A DNA stretch of 64,000 bases, from sequence record OR083247.1; one strand, written 5' to 3'. A program made the position numbers and the translations under genes. Positions 4,965 to 12,997 of this stretch are shown here, piece after piece (the stretch's first letter is position 1; each line of letters starts with the position of its first letter). This DNA comes from Escherichia phage Bf23. The notes beneath the pieces were generated by a model. That model saw only the letters and a list, made by a program, of their open reading frames with translations. It searched no databases and was not told where the DNA came from.

Positions 4965-7754
4965 GTGTTTTCTATCCTCCAAGGTCACGCCGGGTTTTCT
5001 CGTGATTTAGCAACAGGTATTTGGCGAGAAATCAAAGCGGAAGATTATACCTTTGCCAAGCGATTCTCGAAAGAGCATCCAGAAGGTAAACCAGCTTCTA
5101 TGCCCTTCAAATTTGATGTAATAGAAGAGCACGACCCACAAAGCCTTGCCGAAATGTTACCCCTTATGAGACGTTTAACGTCTGATCCTCATATCGTTGC
5201 GGTACGAGGTCGATGTCTTGCACCTAAAAATAATGTGCGGCGTAAGAAAGGTAACTTTAATGTATCTAATCCTAGTAATATTATTGCTATGGACGTGGAT
5301 GGTATCCTAGATACCGGTGGGTACGACAAATTTAATCTTGTTGGTATGGCTCGCCACATTATTAAGATGTTGAATAGTATTAGTGAGGATATGTTCCCTC
5401 TTGATGCAGGCTTTATAGCTCATGCATCGTCTTCGGCTGGGCTAAAACCAGGTATCCGAATGCACTTAATGCTAGAATCTAATGTCAAGGTAACTCAGGG
5501 TCAGCTAAAGTTCTTATTTACATCTATCAACGATAGTAGTAAGCAAAAATTTGGTTTTGATATTGCCGACCTAGCTTATTATTCATCTGTCCAGCTCCAC
5601 TATTTTGCCGACCCCTTATTTAGCGATGGTATTGTTGATCCGTTTAAAGCGGAGAGTAAGCCACGTCTGGTGTATGTTAAAGGTTCGAAAGTAAATTTGC
5701 CCAATAATCTGGTTGACTATGAAACAACTAGAGGGGAGTTTAAGGAAGAGTTTTATTCCTTACTTGATCAAATTAAAGGCAAAAAGATTGCTTCTGATAA
5801 AGTAGAAGAAACCATCAGCGAGTTAGAAGAGGCTGATGATGGGGTGTATTTGCGTATTATCCCCAAACTATACCATAGAGCATTAGAGGATGGGGTTGAT
5901 TTTGCATGGCTAGAACGTGAGATTAAACCAGCTTTATCTGAATATATTGCAACTAAAGATAACAGTCGTAATATTCAAGATTACTTTAATAACGGTCGTA
6001 AGCAGGCTCTCAAAGCGTTTGTTAATAATTCTAAACGTGAGATTCCATTAAATCTGAAAGGTGTTCCACTTAAGAAATTAGAAGTGGATTCTCCACCAGA
6101 AGTTCCATACCTGAAGATTAACATTGTGCCCCCCAAAGGCCATATAACATTTGTTAAGGCAAGTCTTGGTACTGGTAAAACTACGGCAGTAACTAAATGG
6201 CTGGACGCAGGTGTTCTTCCGGGCAACTTTTTAGCAGTTACAAATACTAGAGCACTGGTATCTTCAAATGCCAAGAAATTTAGTGCAGGACAATACGATA
6301 AGTCTGTAGATATGCTCAACTTTAAACGTGGAGCTATTGATCGTATGTCCACAACTATTCACTCTTTGCATAAGTTCAAAAGTTTTATTGGGCAAATAGA
6401 CACCATTTTTATTGATGAATGTGACGCTGTAATGAATGACCTATTATTCGCCCCTGTTGTTAAACAACGTCGCGAGTGTATTCAAGTTCTACGTGACATC
6501 CTCATGACAGCTAAGACTGTAATCTTATCCGATGGTGATATTAGCGCTGAGACGATTGAAGCATATGGTTCTCTAATTGATTTTGATAAACCAGTAGCAT
6601 TTTATAATCATCACCGTAAAATGCTGTCAAAAGCACACGCTTATGAGTTCCCTGATGAATCCAGTATTTGGGTTGCACTTCAGACTTCTCTAGAGATGGG
6701 TGAGAAATCTATTCTAGTATCTGATTGTGGTCCTGATGAGCTGAATGAGAAGGGTATGGCACTACGTCGTAATACTGGTGCGTTAGTTAAGGAAATCCAT
6801 TCAAACTCTACGTCAGATGTGGATATTCGACGTATTCTGGATTATACAACTAATGAGCTAATTGATCAACAAATTGATTGCTTATTATGTAGCCCATCCG
6901 TAACGAGTGGTGTTGACTTTAACTACTTTGATAACGTATTTGTTATTACTAGAACCAGTAATCAAGCGCCAAACATGCGTTTCCAAGCAATCAGGCGCGA
7001 CCGTGGTGCTCAGAATATCTATTATTTTATTGATAAATCCACTAGTGGGTTCTCCGCAGGTTCTGAACAATATAATATTGATGAAGGTTGGCTGGAGTTA
7101 GCACAGCAATTATACGCACGTCGCAGGGAACTGGAATCCAGGAACTATACTAGTACTTTACGTTATTACTTGCTTGATCAAGGTGCAACTATTGATATTT
7201 TCAGCGAAAGCTGGGGAACTATTGAAGGTGCTGGTAAAGAGTACACAGAAGAGCGAATCAAAGCTATTCTGCATTCAACTCCAGATTATTGTGCTCCACG
7301 TCATGCGGATGCGTATGAAGCTAAACTACTTCTTGTTCGCTATTATCATCTTGAGTCTATTAAAGATGTAACAGTTGAGCATGTTGAACAATATATCAAA
7401 GATAAACCGAATGATCGAGCTGCATTCTTCCATAAGATGCACGAGATGTTTTGGGAAGATATTAAGAAGTGTTCAAACGTCACTATCAAACCATTCATAG
7501 AAGCTCTGAAAGGTAAGAAGAAAGATTTCTTCCTTAAAACAGGTCAGAGTGCTAATGCAAAATATGCTAGAATGTATCTTGGTATGATGGGCATTGGTAA
7601 AGATATGAACACGGAGAATATTGTAGACTGGTATAGAACCTATTGTAAAATCGAGTGTATGCCAATTCCTTATAAGTTCATGACTGACGAGGAAAAACAT
7701 ATGCATGATGAAGCAATGTCAGAGCTAGGTGCTAGAAATGACAGTGAAGAATAA
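4965..7754 (+). CDS. Large P-loop ATPase, putative replication-initiation/origin-binding helicase-like protein (929 aa)
   Basis: GTG start with RBS AGGAG; Walker A SLGTGKTT, Walker B-like FIDECDAV. Function inferred from motifs and its position at the head of the replication module. Confidence 0.55.
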   Translation: MFSILQGHAGFSRDLATGIWREIKAEDYTFAKRFSKEHPEGKPASMPFKFDVIEEHDPQSLAEMLPLMRRLTSDPHIVAVRGRCLAPKNNVRRKKGNFNVSNPSNIIAMDVDGILDTGGYDKFNLVGMARHIIKMLNSISEDMFPLDAGFIAHASSSAGLKPGIRMHLMLESNVKVTQGQLKFLFTSINDSSKQKFGFDIADLAYYSSVQLHYFADPLFSDGIVDPFKAESKPRLVYVKGSKVNLPNNLVDYETTRGEFKEEFYSLLDQIKGKKIASDKVEETISELEEADDGVYLRIIPKLYHRALEDGVDFAWLEREIKPALSEYIATKDNSRNIQDYFNNGRKQALKAFVNNSKREIPLNLKGVPLKKLEVDSPPEVPYLKINIVPPKGHITFVKASLGTGKTTAVTKWLDAGVLPGNFLAVTNTRALVSSNAKKFSAGQYDKSVDMLNFKRGAIDRMSTTIHSLHKFKSFIGQIDTIFIDECDAVMNDLLFAPVVKQRRECIQVLRDILMTAKTVILSDGDISAETIEAYGSLIDFDKPVAFYNHHRKMLSKAHAYEFPDESSIWVALQTSLEMGEKSILVSDCGPDELNEKGMALRRNTGALVKEIHSNSTSDVDIRRILDYTTNELIDQQIDCLLCSPSVTSGVDFNYFDNVFVITRTSNQAPNMRFQAIRRDRGAQNIYYFIDKSTSGFSAGSEQYNIDEGWLELAQQLYARRRELESRNYTSTLRYYLLDQGATIDIFSESWGTIEGAGKEYTEERIKAILHSTPDYCAPRHADAYEAKLLLVRYYHLESIKDVTVEHVEQYIKDKPNDRAAFFHKMHEMFWEDIKKCSNVTIKPFIEALKGKKKDFFLKTGQSANAKYARMYLGMMGIGKDMNTENIVDWYRTYCKIECMPIPYKFMTDEEKHMHDEAMSELGARNDSEE

Positions 7755-7971
7755 AAAATGGGAAACAAGGAAGTTTCCAGTAAAGGAACGTAAAGTTCCT
7801 GTTTATGATACTTCGGAAAAGCTATGTAGGGTGGTACCACATAGATTAGCTGGTATCCCTAACATATCCGAGTGGTTACTTAAACAACGGAGGACTAACG
7901 TATCTCTTCGCATAGGGTTTGAGTTAGATAAAGTATATGCTGAACTTTCTTCTTTGCTCAAAGAATCATAA
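7729..7971 (+). CDS. Hypothetical protein (80 aa)
   Basis: ORF overlapping the 3' end of the upstream gene; no motif. Confidence 0.35.
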   Translation: MLEMTVKNKKWETRKFPVKERKVPVYDTSEKLCRVVPHRLAGIPNISEWLLKQRRTNVSLRIGFELDKVYAELSSLLKES

Positions 7972-7977
7972 AAAATT

Positions 7978-8030
7978 TATTTGCTTTCAGGAAAATTTTT
8001 CTGTATAATAGATTTATAAATTTGAGAGAG
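7978..8030 (+). promoter_or_regulatory. Strong sigma70 early promoter, near-identical to the classical T5 PN25 promoter as I recall it
   Basis: TTGCTT (7981-7986), 17-bp spacer, TATAAT (8004-8009), leader ATAAATTTGAGAGAGGAG; surrounding sequence TCATAAAAAATTTATTTGCTTTCAGGAAAATTTTTCTGTATAATAGATT. Confidence 0.75.
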
Positions 8031-8040
8031 GAGTTTAAAT

Positions 8041-8745
8041 ATGGCTGGTTCTCGCAGAAAGAAACATATCCATGAAATCCCGGATGAAGTCTTTAAAAAA
8101 GTTATAGAGCATCTGGAGAACGGTGGTACTAAGAAAGCAGCATGTGAAATGCTCGGGGTATCATCCAACCCAACTATGGAAAGGATGATAGAAGAATGGC
8201 AAGATCGCCAAATTCAAGTTGCCGAGATGAAGAAAAAGAAACGTGGTACACTCATTGAAGGTATTGAGTTGGCCAACGTTATTGAACAGTATCTATCTGG
8301 CGATTCTTTTGAAGAGATTGCCGATCGTAATTACCGCTCTGTAGCAATGGTTAAATCTGTTCTGGAACGATATGGTGCTCTACTTCGTTTGAACGATATT
8401 GTAGACCCATTGAATCCTCCAATTATCCCTGACGATGCTGTAGCAGAAGAATTTGAAGTTGGAGAACTAGTTTGGGTTCCTGGATACCAGTGTATCGGTG
8501 AAATCAAAAAAGCAATGGATAATCCTGTTGGTTGTTATCGAGTCTGGTTACTATCGGAAGGCAAACAACAGAACGTTCATTATATGAATTATGAGCTGGC
8601 TTCTGTTAAACATCTGGAAAAGTTAGGGGTTGACGTAAAATCTCTGGGGTACAAGTGGACTCGTGAAGAAGTTATTACGTTGATTAACGAAGCTGTTAAG
8701 GCTGCCCTGAAACTTGATAAAGAAAAAGGAAAACGCCGTGAGTAG
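8041..8745 (+). CDS. Putative DNA-binding protein with N-terminal HTH (234 aa)
   Basis: N-terminus ..GGTKKAACEMLGVSSNPTMERM.. looks like a helix-turn-helix; first gene after the PN25-like promoter. Confidence 0.5.
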   Translation: MAGSRRKKHIHEIPDEVFKKVIEHLENGGTKKAACEMLGVSSNPTMERMIEEWQDRQIQVAEMKKKKRGTLIEGIELANVIEQYLSGDSFEEIADRNYRSVAMVKSVLERYGALLRLNDIVDPLNPPIIPDDAVAEEFEVGELVWVPGYQCIGEIKKAMDNPVGCYRVWLLSEGKQQNVHYMNYELASVKHLEKLGVDVKSLGYKWTREEVITLINEAVKAALKLDKEKGKRRE

Positions 8746-9887: not shown

Positions 9888-10196
9888 ATGAGCGAACAGG
9901 TAAATCAAAACTATGAAGGACACGTTGATGACCAGTCCATCATACTTTGGGAGAAGGAGGGGGAACAAGTAAGATTAACAGTATCTGAATTTCGTGGGAA
10001 TCTATACATGGGTATTCGTTACTGGCTTCTTGATATTAATGATGAATGGTTTCCAACGAAATCTGGCTTCTCTTTTCCTTACACCCTAGAAACAACATCA
10101 CAGCTTTTCTATGCGTTTACACAGATTCTTAGCGAATCTGAGGTTTTACATGAAGTACAGAAACGAGCTGAAGAACTCAAAGCCAAGAATGCCTAG
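9888..10196 (+). CDS. PC4/Sub1-like ssDNA-binding protein
   Basis: VRLTVSEFRGNLYMGIRYW and PTKSGFSFP resemble the PC4 C-terminal domain (..VSVRDFKGK.LIDIREYW..P.RKGISL). A PC4-like protein is known from T5-like phages. Confidence 0.55.
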   Translation: MSEQVNQNYEGHVDDQSIILWEKEGEQVRLTVSEFRGNLYMGIRYWLLDINDEWFPTKSGFSFPYTLETTSQLFYAFTQILSESEVLHEVQKRAEELKAKNA

Positions 10197-10210
10197 TTCT
10201 TGGCTTTTTC
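10182..10210 (+). terminator. Rho-independent terminator overlapping the stop of the PC4-like gene
   Basis: GCCAAGAA-TGCCTAG-TTCTTGGC followed by TTTTTCTTT. Confidence 0.65.
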
Positions 10211-10220
10211 TTTATAAATG

Positions 10221-10275
10221 TATTTGCTTTCAACTCAGTTTTGTTATATAATATTTATATAAATTAATGAGAGAT
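10221..10275 (+). promoter_or_regulatory. sigma70 early promoter
   Basis: TTGCTT (10224-10229), 17-bp spacer, TATAAT (10247-10252), leader ATAAATTAATGAGAGA. Confidence 0.65.
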
Positions 10276-10283
10276 ATAAATAA

Positions 10284-11255
10284 ATGACCAATGTAAAAGA
10301 ATTTATTAAACGCTGTCAAGAAGCATATTATCAAGGTATGTCTTTAATCTCTGATGAGGAGTATGATTGCCTAGTAAAACGCTTCCCGTTAGAGGAAGAG
10401 ATCGGGCCTAAGGGTGATATTCCACATCTGTATCGTATGTATTCTTTACAGAAAGTTTACTATAACCGTGGAGATAAACCACCATTCAATCCTTTAGGTC
10501 AGGTGGAAACCGATAAGTTAGATGGTTGTGCAATTTCTCTGCTATATATTAATGGCGAATTTGTTCAAGCACTAACTCGTGGTAATGGTATTCTGGGGAA
10601 TGATGTCACAAGCAACATAAGATTGCTGAACATCCCTAAAAAGATTTCCCAAAAAGTACCTACTCAAATCACTGGTGAAGTTCTAATTACAAAAGAAGTA
10701 GAAAATAAACGTAACTTTGCCTCTGGTGCTATTAACCTCAAAGATAGCGATGATTTCGTACAACGTATCGGGGAAGGTGGTTTAATCTTTGTTGCTTATG
10801 GTATCCAATGTTCTGCTGAATCTGTGGGTATTACAGAAGCATATTTAAAAGATATGCTTTGGCTAGAGAATGAGAACTTCTTAACAGTTGTTAATGTGCG
10901 TTCCTTCTTTAAATGGATTCCGACGGACGGTAAAGTTGTTCGTATTAATGACAACAACAAATTCTTCCGTGAAGGCTGGACTAATAAATTCCCTCGTGGA
11001 GCATTCGCCATTAAAGAGGATGAAGAAGGCGAGATTACAACTCTTACTAAGGTTGAATGGCAGGTAGGGGCTTCTGGTAAAGTAACTCCAGTTGGTTATT
11101 TCGAACCGGTAATTATTGATGATGCTACAATTGTTAAAGCGACTCTTAATAACGTTGATTATATTAACTCTCTCGATCTAGAGATCGGTTGCCAGATTCG
11201 AGTGATTCGTGCTGGTGGTGTAATCCCGTGCATAGTAGAGCGAGTATACGATTAA
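10284..11255 (+). CDS. ligA: NAD-dependent DNA ligase, adenylation (N-terminal) subunit
   Basis: Adenylation motif I KLDG in ETDKLDGCAISLLY; size and position fit a split ligase. Confidence 0.75.
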   Translation: MTNVKEFIKRCQEAYYQGMSLISDEEYDCLVKRFPLEEEIGPKGDIPHLYRMYSLQKVYYNRGDKPPFNPLGQVETDKLDGCAISLLYINGEFVQALTRGNGILGNDVTSNIRLLNIPKKISQKVPTQITGEVLITKEVENKRNFASGAINLKDSDDFVQRIGEGGLIFVAYGIQCSAESVGITEAYLKDMLWLENENFLTVVNVRSFFKWIPTDGKVVRINDNNKFFREGWTNKFPRGAFAIKEDEEGEITTLTKVEWQVGASGKVTPVGYFEPVIIDDATIVKATLNNVDYINSLDLEIGCQIRVIRAGGVIPCIVERVYD

Positions 11256-11395
11256 TACATAATCCTTTGCTACCCATCTACCATATCGGAATTATAAAGT
11301 GGTTATTGACATTTTCGCCGCTTAGGTATATACTATTATCATTCAGTTGAGGGATAGAAAGTTATGGCGAGGGTAAGCAAAGTTAGTTAAAATTG

Positions 11396-11445
11396 TAGTT
11401 GCTAAATGCTTAAATACTTGCTATAATATTTATATAAATTGATAA
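11396..11445 (+). promoter_or_regulatory. sigma70 early promoter inside the ligase split
   Basis: TTGCTA (11399-11404), 17-bp spacer, TATAAT (11422-11427), leader TATAAATTGATAAGGAAG. Confidence 0.6.
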
Positions 11446-11454
11446 GGAAGAAAT

Positions 11455-12237
11455 TTGATGAAAATCGAAATTCCAACACAATGTCCCTCTTGTGGTTCTA
11501 AGCTAGATCTTGTCAACGGACAATTATTTTGTCGTAATAAGTCCAACTGTCCAGCGCAATCAAGTAAGTTAATTGAGAACTTCTGTACAAAAATGAAGTT
11601 AAAGGGTTTTGGCCCGAAAACTATTGAGAAGCTGGAGCTGACGAAGATTTCAGAACTATTTTACCTAACCGAAGAAGATTTGGTTAGAGCCGTGGGTAGC
11701 AAGGTTGCCGCTAAGTTAATTAGCGAATTAAATACTAAAGTTCGCGGAGACATTGACTTTGGTTCAGTTCTCGGTTCTTTAGGAATCTCTCTAATTGGAG
11801 AGGTTGCAGCAAAGAAATTATCCCAAAATTGCACTAGCTTCCACGATGTGAAGGCTGACGGCAAGGCTGGAGAAAACTATAAAGCCTGGCTAAATTCCCC
11901 ACAAGGCAAGGATGTTATCGAATTACCGTGGAAATTCACAACTGGTATTAAAGGTGCTAAAGCTGACATCATCATTACTGATGGTCTAGTAGCCCAACCA
12001 AACGGAATAACGGTATGTATTACCGGATCTTTGCAAGATTTTGCAAATAGAACGGATGCAACAAACTATTTAGAAGGTCTAGGATATACGGTTAAGAAAT
12101 CCGTTACCAAAGACGTCAAATACCTAATCTGTGAGGATGAATCGAAGCGTTCTTCCTCATCTTATAAGAAAGCCGAAACGAATGGGATAGAAATCCTGTC
12201 GATTAAAGAACTATTGGAGAAAAATAATAATGTCTAA
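11455..12237 (+). CDS. ligB: NAD-dependent DNA ligase, C-terminal subunit (Zn finger / HhH / BRCT-like part)
   Basis: Cys4 zinc finger CPSCGSKLD..CRNKSNCP at the N-terminus, as in the C-terminal half of LigA-type ligases. Confidence 0.65.
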   Translation: MMKIEIPTQCPSCGSKLDLVNGQLFCRNKSNCPAQSSKLIENFCTKMKLKGFGPKTIEKLELTKISELFYLTEEDLVRAVGSKVAAKLISELNTKVRGDIDFGSVLGSLGISLIGEVAAKKLSQNCTSFHDVKADGKAGENYKAWLNSPQGKDVIELPWKFTTGIKGAKADIIITDGLVAQPNGITVCITGSLQDFANRTDATNYLEGLGYTVKKSVTKDVKYLICEDESKRSSSSYKKAETNGIEILSIKELLEKNNNV

Positions 12238-12997
12238 ACTGAACTGGAACGTAGAAGGTGTAACCGAGTCTCTGAAAGCAAAAGCCACTGCTCTGGGTGT
12301 TGATGTAATCTCTCAAGAACAAGTAGCTGCTATCGCCGCTGAACTGGCTGCTGAAACTGGCAAAGACGTTACCGCTCGCTCTGTTGGCTCTAAGCTGCGT
12401 AAAGAAGGTTTCGAAGTACAGAAAGCTAACGAAGTACAGAAATCCCCGTGGACTCCTGAGCAGGAAGCTGAACTGGTTGATTTCCTGAACGCTCACGCTG
12501 GTCAGTATACCTATGCTGAAATCGCTGCTGCTGTAGCTGGTGGTCAGTTCGGTGCTAAACAGGTACAGGGTAAGATCCTGAGTCTGGAAATGACCGCTTC
12601 TGTTAAACCAACTGAAAAAGCTGCTGCTGTTCGTTCCTTCACTCCGGATGAAGAAACTGATTTTGTTAATCAGGTTGTTGCTGGTGCTACTATTGAAGCT
12701 ATCGCTGCTCACTTCGGTCGTAATATCAAGCAGATCCGTGGTAAAGCTCTGAGCCTGCTTCGTGAAGGTCGTATCGCTGCTATGCCGGTACAGGAAACCT
12801 CAAGTGCTAAAACTCGTGAAGATCTGTTAGAAGGTCTGGATCTGGTTAACATGACTGTTGCTGAGATCGCTGAGAAAACTGGTAAATCTGAGCGCGGTGT
12901 TAAATCTATGCTGTCTCGTCGTGGTCTGGTTGCTAAGGACTATGATGGTGCCGCTAAGCGTGCTAAACTGGATGCAAAAGCTGCGGCTGCTGAATAA
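12230..12997 (+). CDS. Hypothetical, probably abundant Ala-rich protein with an internal duplication (255 aa); possibly a D5-like DNA-binding protein
   Basis: Strongly host-like codon usage (CTG, CGT, GGT, GCT); two similar segments by eye (..TPEQEAELVDFLNAHAG..AEIAAAV.. and ..TPDEETDFVNQVVAGAT..IAAHF..). Confidence 0.55.
   Translation: MSKLNWNVEGVTESLKAKATALGVDVISQEQVAAIAAELAAETGKDVTARSVGSKLRKEGFEVQKANEVQKSPWTPEQEAELVDFLNAHAGQYTYAEIAAAVAGGQFGAKQVQGKILSLEMTASVKPTEKAAAVRSFTPDEETDFVNQVVAGATIEAIAAHFGRNIKQIRGKALSLLREGRIAAMPVQETSSAKTREDLLEGLDLVNMTVAEIAEKTGKSERGVKSMLSRRGLVAKDYDGAAKRAKLDAKAAAAE

Follow-up and report, generated by a model that had tools for sequence, protein, structure and literature searches.

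Analysis of a 64,000-nucleotide stretch of DNA from Escherichia phage Bf23 (sequence record OR083247.1; the whole stretch is hereafter called the window) indicates that two adjacent genes, ligA and ligB, very probably code for one subunit each of a single heterodimeric NAD+-dependent DNA ligase, the enzyme known from phage T5 as LigA/LigB. Both genes lie on the plus strand. The first, ligA (ORF A, 10284-11255, frame 0), codes for a catalytic subunit of 323 amino acids and ends in the linker between OB fold and zinc finger (OB-Zn linker), while ligB (ORF B, 11458-12237, frame 1) codes for a DNA-binding subunit of 259 amino acids. The two are separated by a non-coding spacer of 202 bp with 31% GC (11256-11457, same strand).

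A 2.3-kb stretch covering the locus is 98% identical to phage T5 and matches 483 phage records, nearly all of them from T5-like phages of Salmonella, Escherichia and Klebsiella. The T5 genes (T5.116 and T5.117; GenBank AY543070, AY692264 and NC_005859) consist of the same two ORFs with the same 202-bp spacer, the same promoters P-K28b and P-K28a between them and a ligB stop that overlaps the start of the following gene, D5, in the same way; the window differs from T5 by a few synonymous and rare non-synonymous substitutions, and otherwise by nothing of substance. A first-pass annotation of the window had noted that T5 is annotated with ligase subunits A and B, and this annotation was found in the T5 GenBank record; ligA and ligB are also listed as subunits in the literature (PMC3632103). 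A two-subunit NAD+-dependent ligase with two promoters between its genes is thus already known from T5, where the split is a textbook-annotated feature, and the question of assembly is met by a deposited structure of an orthologue. The additions made here are modest and concern the conservation of a promoter in the linker, the existence of unsplit relatives and the occurrence of alleles bearing an endonuclease gene.

Domain architecture and probable assembly of the two-chain ligase

The first-pass annotation had read the locus as one NAD-dependent ligase divided over two genes, with the KLDG adenylation domain in the first ORF and a zinc-finger/HhH/BRCT-like part in the second. A search against Pfam bears this out. 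ORF A matches DNA_ligase_aden (E 2.7e-23) and DNA_ligase_OB (E 3.8e-22, residues 252-321), and comprises domain Ia, a nucleotidyltransferase (NTase) domain with the motif K78-L-D-G, and the OB fold. In ORF B, BRCT was matched with an E value of 1.6e-8 and HHH_2 weakly, and the ORF comprises a Cys4 zinc finger, an HhH domain, a disordered linker (residues ~163-180) and the BRCT domain. None of the zinc-finger cysteines of LigB (C9, C12, C25 and C31) varies among 82 diverse homologues. The AF2 model of LigB, with a mean pLDDT of 81, comprises a zinc ribbon, an HhH domain made of helices, the disordered segment 163-180 and a BRCT fold, and a fold search with this model returned chain B of PDB entry 9HU3 (9hu3_B) as the top match, the fold of PDB 2OWO being matched as well.

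Comparison with the bacterial enzyme (E. coli LigA, PDB 2OWO) revealed the same order of domains, namely Ia, NTase, OB, Zn, HhH and BRCT; the catalytic lysine motif and the residues by which domain Ia contacts NAD+ are shared as well. In that NAD+-specific domain, Y15, D24, Y27 and D28 of the phage LigA align to Y22, D32, Y35 and D36 of E. coli LigA; H23 of the E. coli enzyme is replaced by a tyrosine, as it is in the orthologue from Providencia phage PR1 described below. In the NTase domain, K78, D80, G81, R99, E132, R143, D215 and K244 are kept, and are the counterparts of K115, D117, G118, R136, E173, R200, D285 and K314 of E. coli LigA. The glycines of the HhH domain and the zinc-binding cysteines are likewise conserved. 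The main differences are of size and chain number: E. coli LigA is one chain of 671 amino acids, whereas the phage enzyme totals 582 amino acids in two chains and carries deletions in the NTase and HhH domains. The LigA family has all its domains on a single polypeptide, and here these domains lie on two ORFs on either side of a 202-bp spacer; LigA/LigB is a two-chain variant that would work like LigA.

Alignment places the junction between the two subunits at residues 398/399 of E. coli LigA, within the OB-Zn linker, the interruption of the gene corresponding to residues ~393-399 of that enzyme. The sequence across it reads ...IPCIVERVYD* / MKIEIPTQCPSC..., and not a single residue is lost or gained relative to the E. 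coli enzyme. No intein halves were found at this junction (ERVYD / MKIEIPTQC), which holds no extra residues in comparison with E. coli LigA or with unsplit phage ligases. Both genes are under purifying selection, with dN/dS values against close relatives of 0.02-0.05 for ligA and 0.08-0.16 for ligB.

Whether the two polypeptides assemble had been left undecided by the first-pass annotation, and for an orthologue the answer is positive. A sequence search of the PDB found two entries, 9HU3 and 9I5I, that hold both chains: chain A (339 amino acids) matches LigA with an E value of 2.6e-103, and chain B (248 amino acids, named 'DNA ligase subunit B') matches LigB with an E value of 1.3e-78. Entry 9HU3, released on 2026-01-14, is titled 'PR1 phage heterodimeric DNA ligase in complex with 21-mer nicked DNA containing phage nick sequence'. 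Its chain B, which starts at its own Met, is 100% identical to the ligB product of the Providencia phages vB_PreS_PR1 and PSTCR5 (Demerecviridae, genus Priunavirus), whose ligase genes are laid out as ligA-spacer-ligB-D5, just as in the window. The PR1 enzyme shares with that of the window its break point, its gene layout and its tandem spacer promoters, the break point of PSTCR5 aligning with that of the window in the OB-Zn linker; it differs in sequence (54-56% amino-acid identity), in the size of its subunits (333 + 249 against 323 + 259 amino acids) and in having a shorter linker before the BRCT domain.

On the proposed mechanism, LigA would react with NAD+ through K78 and carry out the chemistry, and LigB would provide the DNA-binding half that follows on the same chain in bacterial LigA. 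Earlier literature reports that a truncation of LigN equivalent to the A subunit still forms the enzyme-adenylate. Since the gene is interrupted in a flexible linker, with residues neither lost nor added, the two proteins would rebuild the usual clamp round the nick non-covalently, as in the PR1 crystal.

Promoters and diversity of the ligase locus

The first-pass annotation had described the spacer as carrying its own early-family promoter. A promoter is indeed predicted there, although the count has to be corrected, as two tandem promoters were found and not one. The first of these, P-K28b in T5 nomenclature (11306-11334, plus strand), reads TTGACA-17-TATACT and matches the consensus at 11 of 12 positions; the second, P-K28a (11399-11427, plus strand), reads TTGCTA-17-(TG)TATAAT, with 10 matches out of 12 and an extended TG. 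Both coincide with features of the T5 GenBank record, 'promoter P-K 28b' and 'promoter P-K 28a'. Transcription from P-K28a is predicted to start near 11434, which would leave ligB a leader of ~24 nt. The region upstream of ligA (10204-10278, plus strand) likewise corresponds to a 'promoter' feature of T5 GenBank at the homologous position (offset 8599). The 19-mer TATAATATTTATATAAATT, which spans the -10 hexamer and the initial transcribed region, precedes both ligA (10247-10265) and ligB (11422-11440) without a single difference. Allowing at most 3 mismatches, it occurs nine times in the window, always on the plus strand, against 0.24 occurrences expected, the other sites of the family lying at 1305, 4462, 8004, 20302, 20403, 30790 and 59524. 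To judge from their sequence, these sites are a promoter family with a conserved downstream region, in agreement with the early family proposed previously. Among enterobacterial relatives, the hexamers of both spacer promoters are kept across genera while the flanking spacer has diverged.

The spacer would thus serve as a site of transcription start, its tandem sigma-70 promoters launching a ligB-D5-helicase-primase unit. No terminator-like site was found after ligA, and ligB is probably transcribed by two routes, on transcripts that start at the ligA promoter and read through, and from the spacer promoters, given that the latter would launch the ligB unit. The D5 gene (12230-12997, plus strand) begins with an ATG that overlaps the ligB stop (ATGTCTAA), and ligB is therefore placed as the first gene of a ligB-D5-helicase transcription unit. 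The order ligB-D5-DnaB is common to all relatives examined. The overlap itself, at 12230-12237, suggests that ligB and D5 are translationally coupled; ligB and D5 also abut or overlap in phages My1, PSTCR5 and JSF12 and in metagenomic loci.

The division into ligA and ligB was observed in every Demerecviridae isolate group sampled, namely Tequintavirus, the T5-likes of Klebsiella, Myunavirus My1, Priunavirus, Vipunavirus pVp-1, Jesfedecavirus JSF12 and Vibrio phage D23. Phage records matching LigB (955) and LigA (1195) are spread over the Demerecviridae, and the best 120 LigB homologues, down to 50% identity, measure ~250-260 amino acids except for two truncated entries of 190 and 214. An exhaustive search of cluster representatives at 50% identity added ~100 further clusters of stand-alone LigB type, in all of which the first cysteine of the zinc finger lies no more than a few residues from the start.

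Scattered among these clusters, the same search found ~10 compact unsplit ligases of 555-578 amino acids. Five of them could be placed on contigs (P0152, P0174, P0203, P0208 and P0227; 556-568 amino acids), and all five lie in the T5 syntenic block formed by D3, T5.114, the PC4-like gene, the ligase, D5 and the DnaB helicase. These unsplit metagenomic T5-like enzymes occupy the same slot, are built just as compactly, and share 32-42% identity with both halves of the window's ligase. They are encoded by one ORF with a linker of 13-22 amino acids, at the place where the window has a stop, a spacer and a start. Split and unsplit forms therefore coexist at one locus across the wider T5-like group. 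The view that the split is ancestral, put forward in the first-pass annotation, holds for all the Demerecviridae isolates sampled; at greater depth, where the unsplit forms appear in the same slot, either state could be the older one. A neighbour-joining tree of LigB regions is star-like, with the unsplit forms scattered and 10 parsimony changes, and is too poorly resolved for a count of fission and fusion events.

A scan of IMG/VR with a degenerate DNA pattern yielded 55 loci, all of them split; their 32 distinct gaps between ligA and ligB range from about 60 to 1374 bp, two shorter values being artefacts of start-codon calling. P0139 has no relative in IMG/VR. A promoter, counted as such if it agreed with the consensus at 10 or more of 12 positions and lay no further than 160 nt from where ligB starts, was present in 15/15 representative split lineages, the gaps of which measure 49-1374 bp, against 0.8/15 in shuffled sequences. 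In two distant metagenomic split loci, with gaps of 60 and 49 bp, the gap amounts to essentially one promoter each. On three T5-like contigs of IMG/VR (L027, L063 and L065), the ATG of ligB lies 6-7 nt past a consensus -10 hexamer. Such spacing implies, at the level of sequence, a leaderless or near-leaderless ligB mRNA, unlike the predicted ~24-nt leader with Shine-Dalgarno sequence of the window.

One of the unsplit ligases, 563 amino acids long and encoded on a Logan contig (L015, SRR17165187), contains in frame a perfect TTGACA-17-TATAAT (1708-1736). This promoter-like stretch encodes VDNLSSDEYNN within an unusually long OB-Zn linker, which looks as if a promoter-only gap had been re-fused.

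Alternative readings of the divided gene

Some observations weigh against the assignment of ligA and ligB to a functional heterodimer. Three residues of E. coli LigA, K290, R208 and R277, are replaced in the window's LigA by R220, N151 and L194; all three replacements are likewise found in the crystallised PR1 enzyme, and the compact phage clade therefore differs from bacterial LigA at these positions. The assembly of the window's own pair on nicked DNA and the sealing of the nick would follow by analogy with an orthologue that is 54-56% identical, and the predicted activity of the spacer promoters is based on their sequence and on how T5 is annotated in GenBank. We infer the assembly and activity of this pair, the use of the promoters in vivo and the stoichiometry of the subunits. 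The competing accounts of the two ORFs fare worse. The idea that both ORFs end up in one chain, through read-through of the stop codon, a frameshift or ribosomes bypassing the spacer, is motivated solely by the fact that all cellular LigA enzymes are single chains, and no evidence in its favour was found. The spacer contains 7-8 stop codons in each of the three frames over its 202 nt, ligB lies in another frame than ligA and has its own ATG preceded at 7 nt by a Shine-Dalgarno sequence read as AAGGAAG (11444-11450, plus strand), two whole genes stand between ligA and ligB in Vibrio relatives, and the PR1 orthologue was crystallised as two chains with B beginning at its own Met. Read-through or frameshifting, named in the first-pass annotation as what could overturn its interpretation, is thereby excluded to the point that we regard a single chain as hardly conceivable. 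Neither the T5 annotation nor the PR1 crystal chain uses as a start the TTG that precedes the ligB ATG in frame, at 11455. Scarcely more credible is a broken, decaying gene, a pseudogene in two pieces that would leave the phage dependent on the LigA of its host. Deletions at ~178-195 and ~216-245 make the adenylation domain shorter than that of E. coli LigA, and the HhH domain is shorter too, as decay might produce; against this stand the dN/dS values of 0.02-0.16 for both halves among close relatives, the conserved catalytic residues, the same break point between intact genes from T5 to the Vibrio phages and in ~100 metagenomic clusters at 50% identity, and the DNA-bound complex formed by the orthologue. 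A role of its own for LigB, for instance as a nick- or DNA-binding factor made in excess from two strong promoters, so that the pair would not be an obligate 1:1 complex, is unlikely but has more to recommend it: ligB has two promoters that ligA is without and would share a transcript with the gene of the DNA-binding protein D5, contig L019 has a gene other than ligA immediately before ligB, and specific nicks are known in T5-like genomes (PMC10644984), the PR1 structure being determined on a 'phage nick sequence'. Nothing, however, shows LigB acting alone, ligA and ligB are adjacent and co-occur in almost all genomes examined, and the crystal entry is described as a heterodimer.

A further account concerns the origin of the split and is compatible with a heterodimeric ligase. 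It holds that the division was left behind by a free-standing homing endonuclease gene (HEG) once inserted in the OB-Zn linker, the window carrying an endonuclease-free allele. Salmonella phage SP3 (MG387042) and vB_Sen_SG_WM_RUS_R2 have a GIY-YIG gene of ~213 amino acids (Pfam E 1.1e-5) exactly between the ligA stop and P-K28b; it lies at 7735-8391 in SP3 (L075), at a site homologous to window ~11256-11272, and replaces ~17 nt of the window's spacer. Over its final ~160 nt, SP3 ligA shares 69% identity with the window, compared with 93-98% in the middle of the gene, and this divergence looks like a co-conversion or immunity tract beside a homing endonuclease; by the same token, the 3' end of the window's ligA may be a target site of the SP3 enzyme. 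Genes of T5orf172 type, related to GIY-YIG, occur in the gap of three distant T5-like contigs (L033, L037 and L049), an assignment that is tentative as the two Pfam T5orf172 matches, at 17.7 and 18.5 bits, fall under the curated cut-off of 20 bits. A precedent is provided by Aeromonas phage Aeh1, in which NrdA is split as nrdA-a / mobE / nrdA-b, a case of 'genes in pieces' (PMC3045599). As with the T5-type ligase, an essential replication enzyme is encoded there by two genes whose products reassemble; the Aeh1 break holds a homing endonuclease gene, whereas that of the window holds promoters only, and the comparison is apt for rare relatives such as SP3 and not for the window. An endonuclease is present in only 3 of ~480 close records, representing 2 phages, and therefore seems to have entered, in recent times, a gap that was already there. 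In the shortest gaps (49-63 bp), moreover, there is nothing but a promoter, and the spacer of the window (11256-11457) contains neither a homing endonuclease gene nor a detectable remnant of one, as judged from the ORF list and Rfam. Altogether, we consider descent from an HEG insertion possible but rather improbable. A group I or II intron was also rejected, since the spacer has no Rfam match at E<=1 and its RNA folds no better than shuffled sequences (z = -0.94); the earlier statement that the spacer harbors no intron or endonuclease gene is therefore upheld. The ORFs in the gap of the Vibrio phages were considered as endonucleases and discarded, as they proved to be phrog_23191 and phrog_768 ('DprA-like').

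On contig L033 (IMG/VR 3300021594_000032), the T5orf172-type gene (755-1082) runs into the start of ligB (~1035), and no ATG, GTG or TTG precedes the zinc finger in the ligB frame. The ligB of this contig may be damaged or may use an unusual start.

Within the favoured reading of a heterodimeric ligase, it is conceivable, though we would not yet put it ahead of its alternatives, that the conserved and selected feature of this locus is the promoter and not the split. The linker would then be the start of the ligB-D5-helicase-primase unit, and its coding as one or two ORFs would be secondary and reversible. This suggestion is drawn from the presence of a promoter in all fifteen representative gaps, from the in-frame promoter of the unsplit L015 gene and from the capacity of the gap to receive endonuclease genes, and the gap is regarded as the start of a unit of replication genes because ligB overlaps or abuts D5, with the helicase and primase following. 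With its unsplit alleles, its split ones and those invaded by an endonuclease, all at a single locus, the enzyme offers a natural series with which the origins of gene fission and fusion could be tested, as well as any regulatory advantage of a two-chain ligase, for example in relation to the specific nicks of T5-type genomes. An operon promoter embedded in an interdomain linker could also be of interest to specialists of phage evolution.

Neighbouring features

A mini-ORF within the spacer (MARVSKVS, 11365-11391), which lies behind a GAGG, was dropped as a candidate gene, its ATG not being conserved in the Klebsiella phages, My1 or PSTCR5. Upstream of ligA, the PC4-like gene (9888-10196) precedes a terminator-like hairpin (10179-10207, plus strand) with a 12-bp stem followed by a run of T, which would close the upstream transcription unit.

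The region directly 5' of ligA, homologous to window ~10200-10283, is a variable slot. Phages SP15 (L002, 684-956) and IrisVonRoten (L003, 683-883) carry there a small extra ORF that the window and T5 are without, and the small ORFs found 5' of ligA in relatives belong to phrog_35018 or phrog_8267, two families without an assigned function. Insertions of ~200-270 bp in SP15, IrisVonRoten and HdH2 were considered as spacer insertions and set aside, as they sit upstream of ligA instead. The phrog_768 gene, absent from the ligase locus of the window, is located 5' of ligA in Pectobacterium phage My1 (L004, 833-1342) and between ligA and ligB in the Vibrio phages pVp-1 (L005, 1817-2341) and JSF12 (L009, 1831-2400); the gene order around ligA has therefore been rearranged among these phages.

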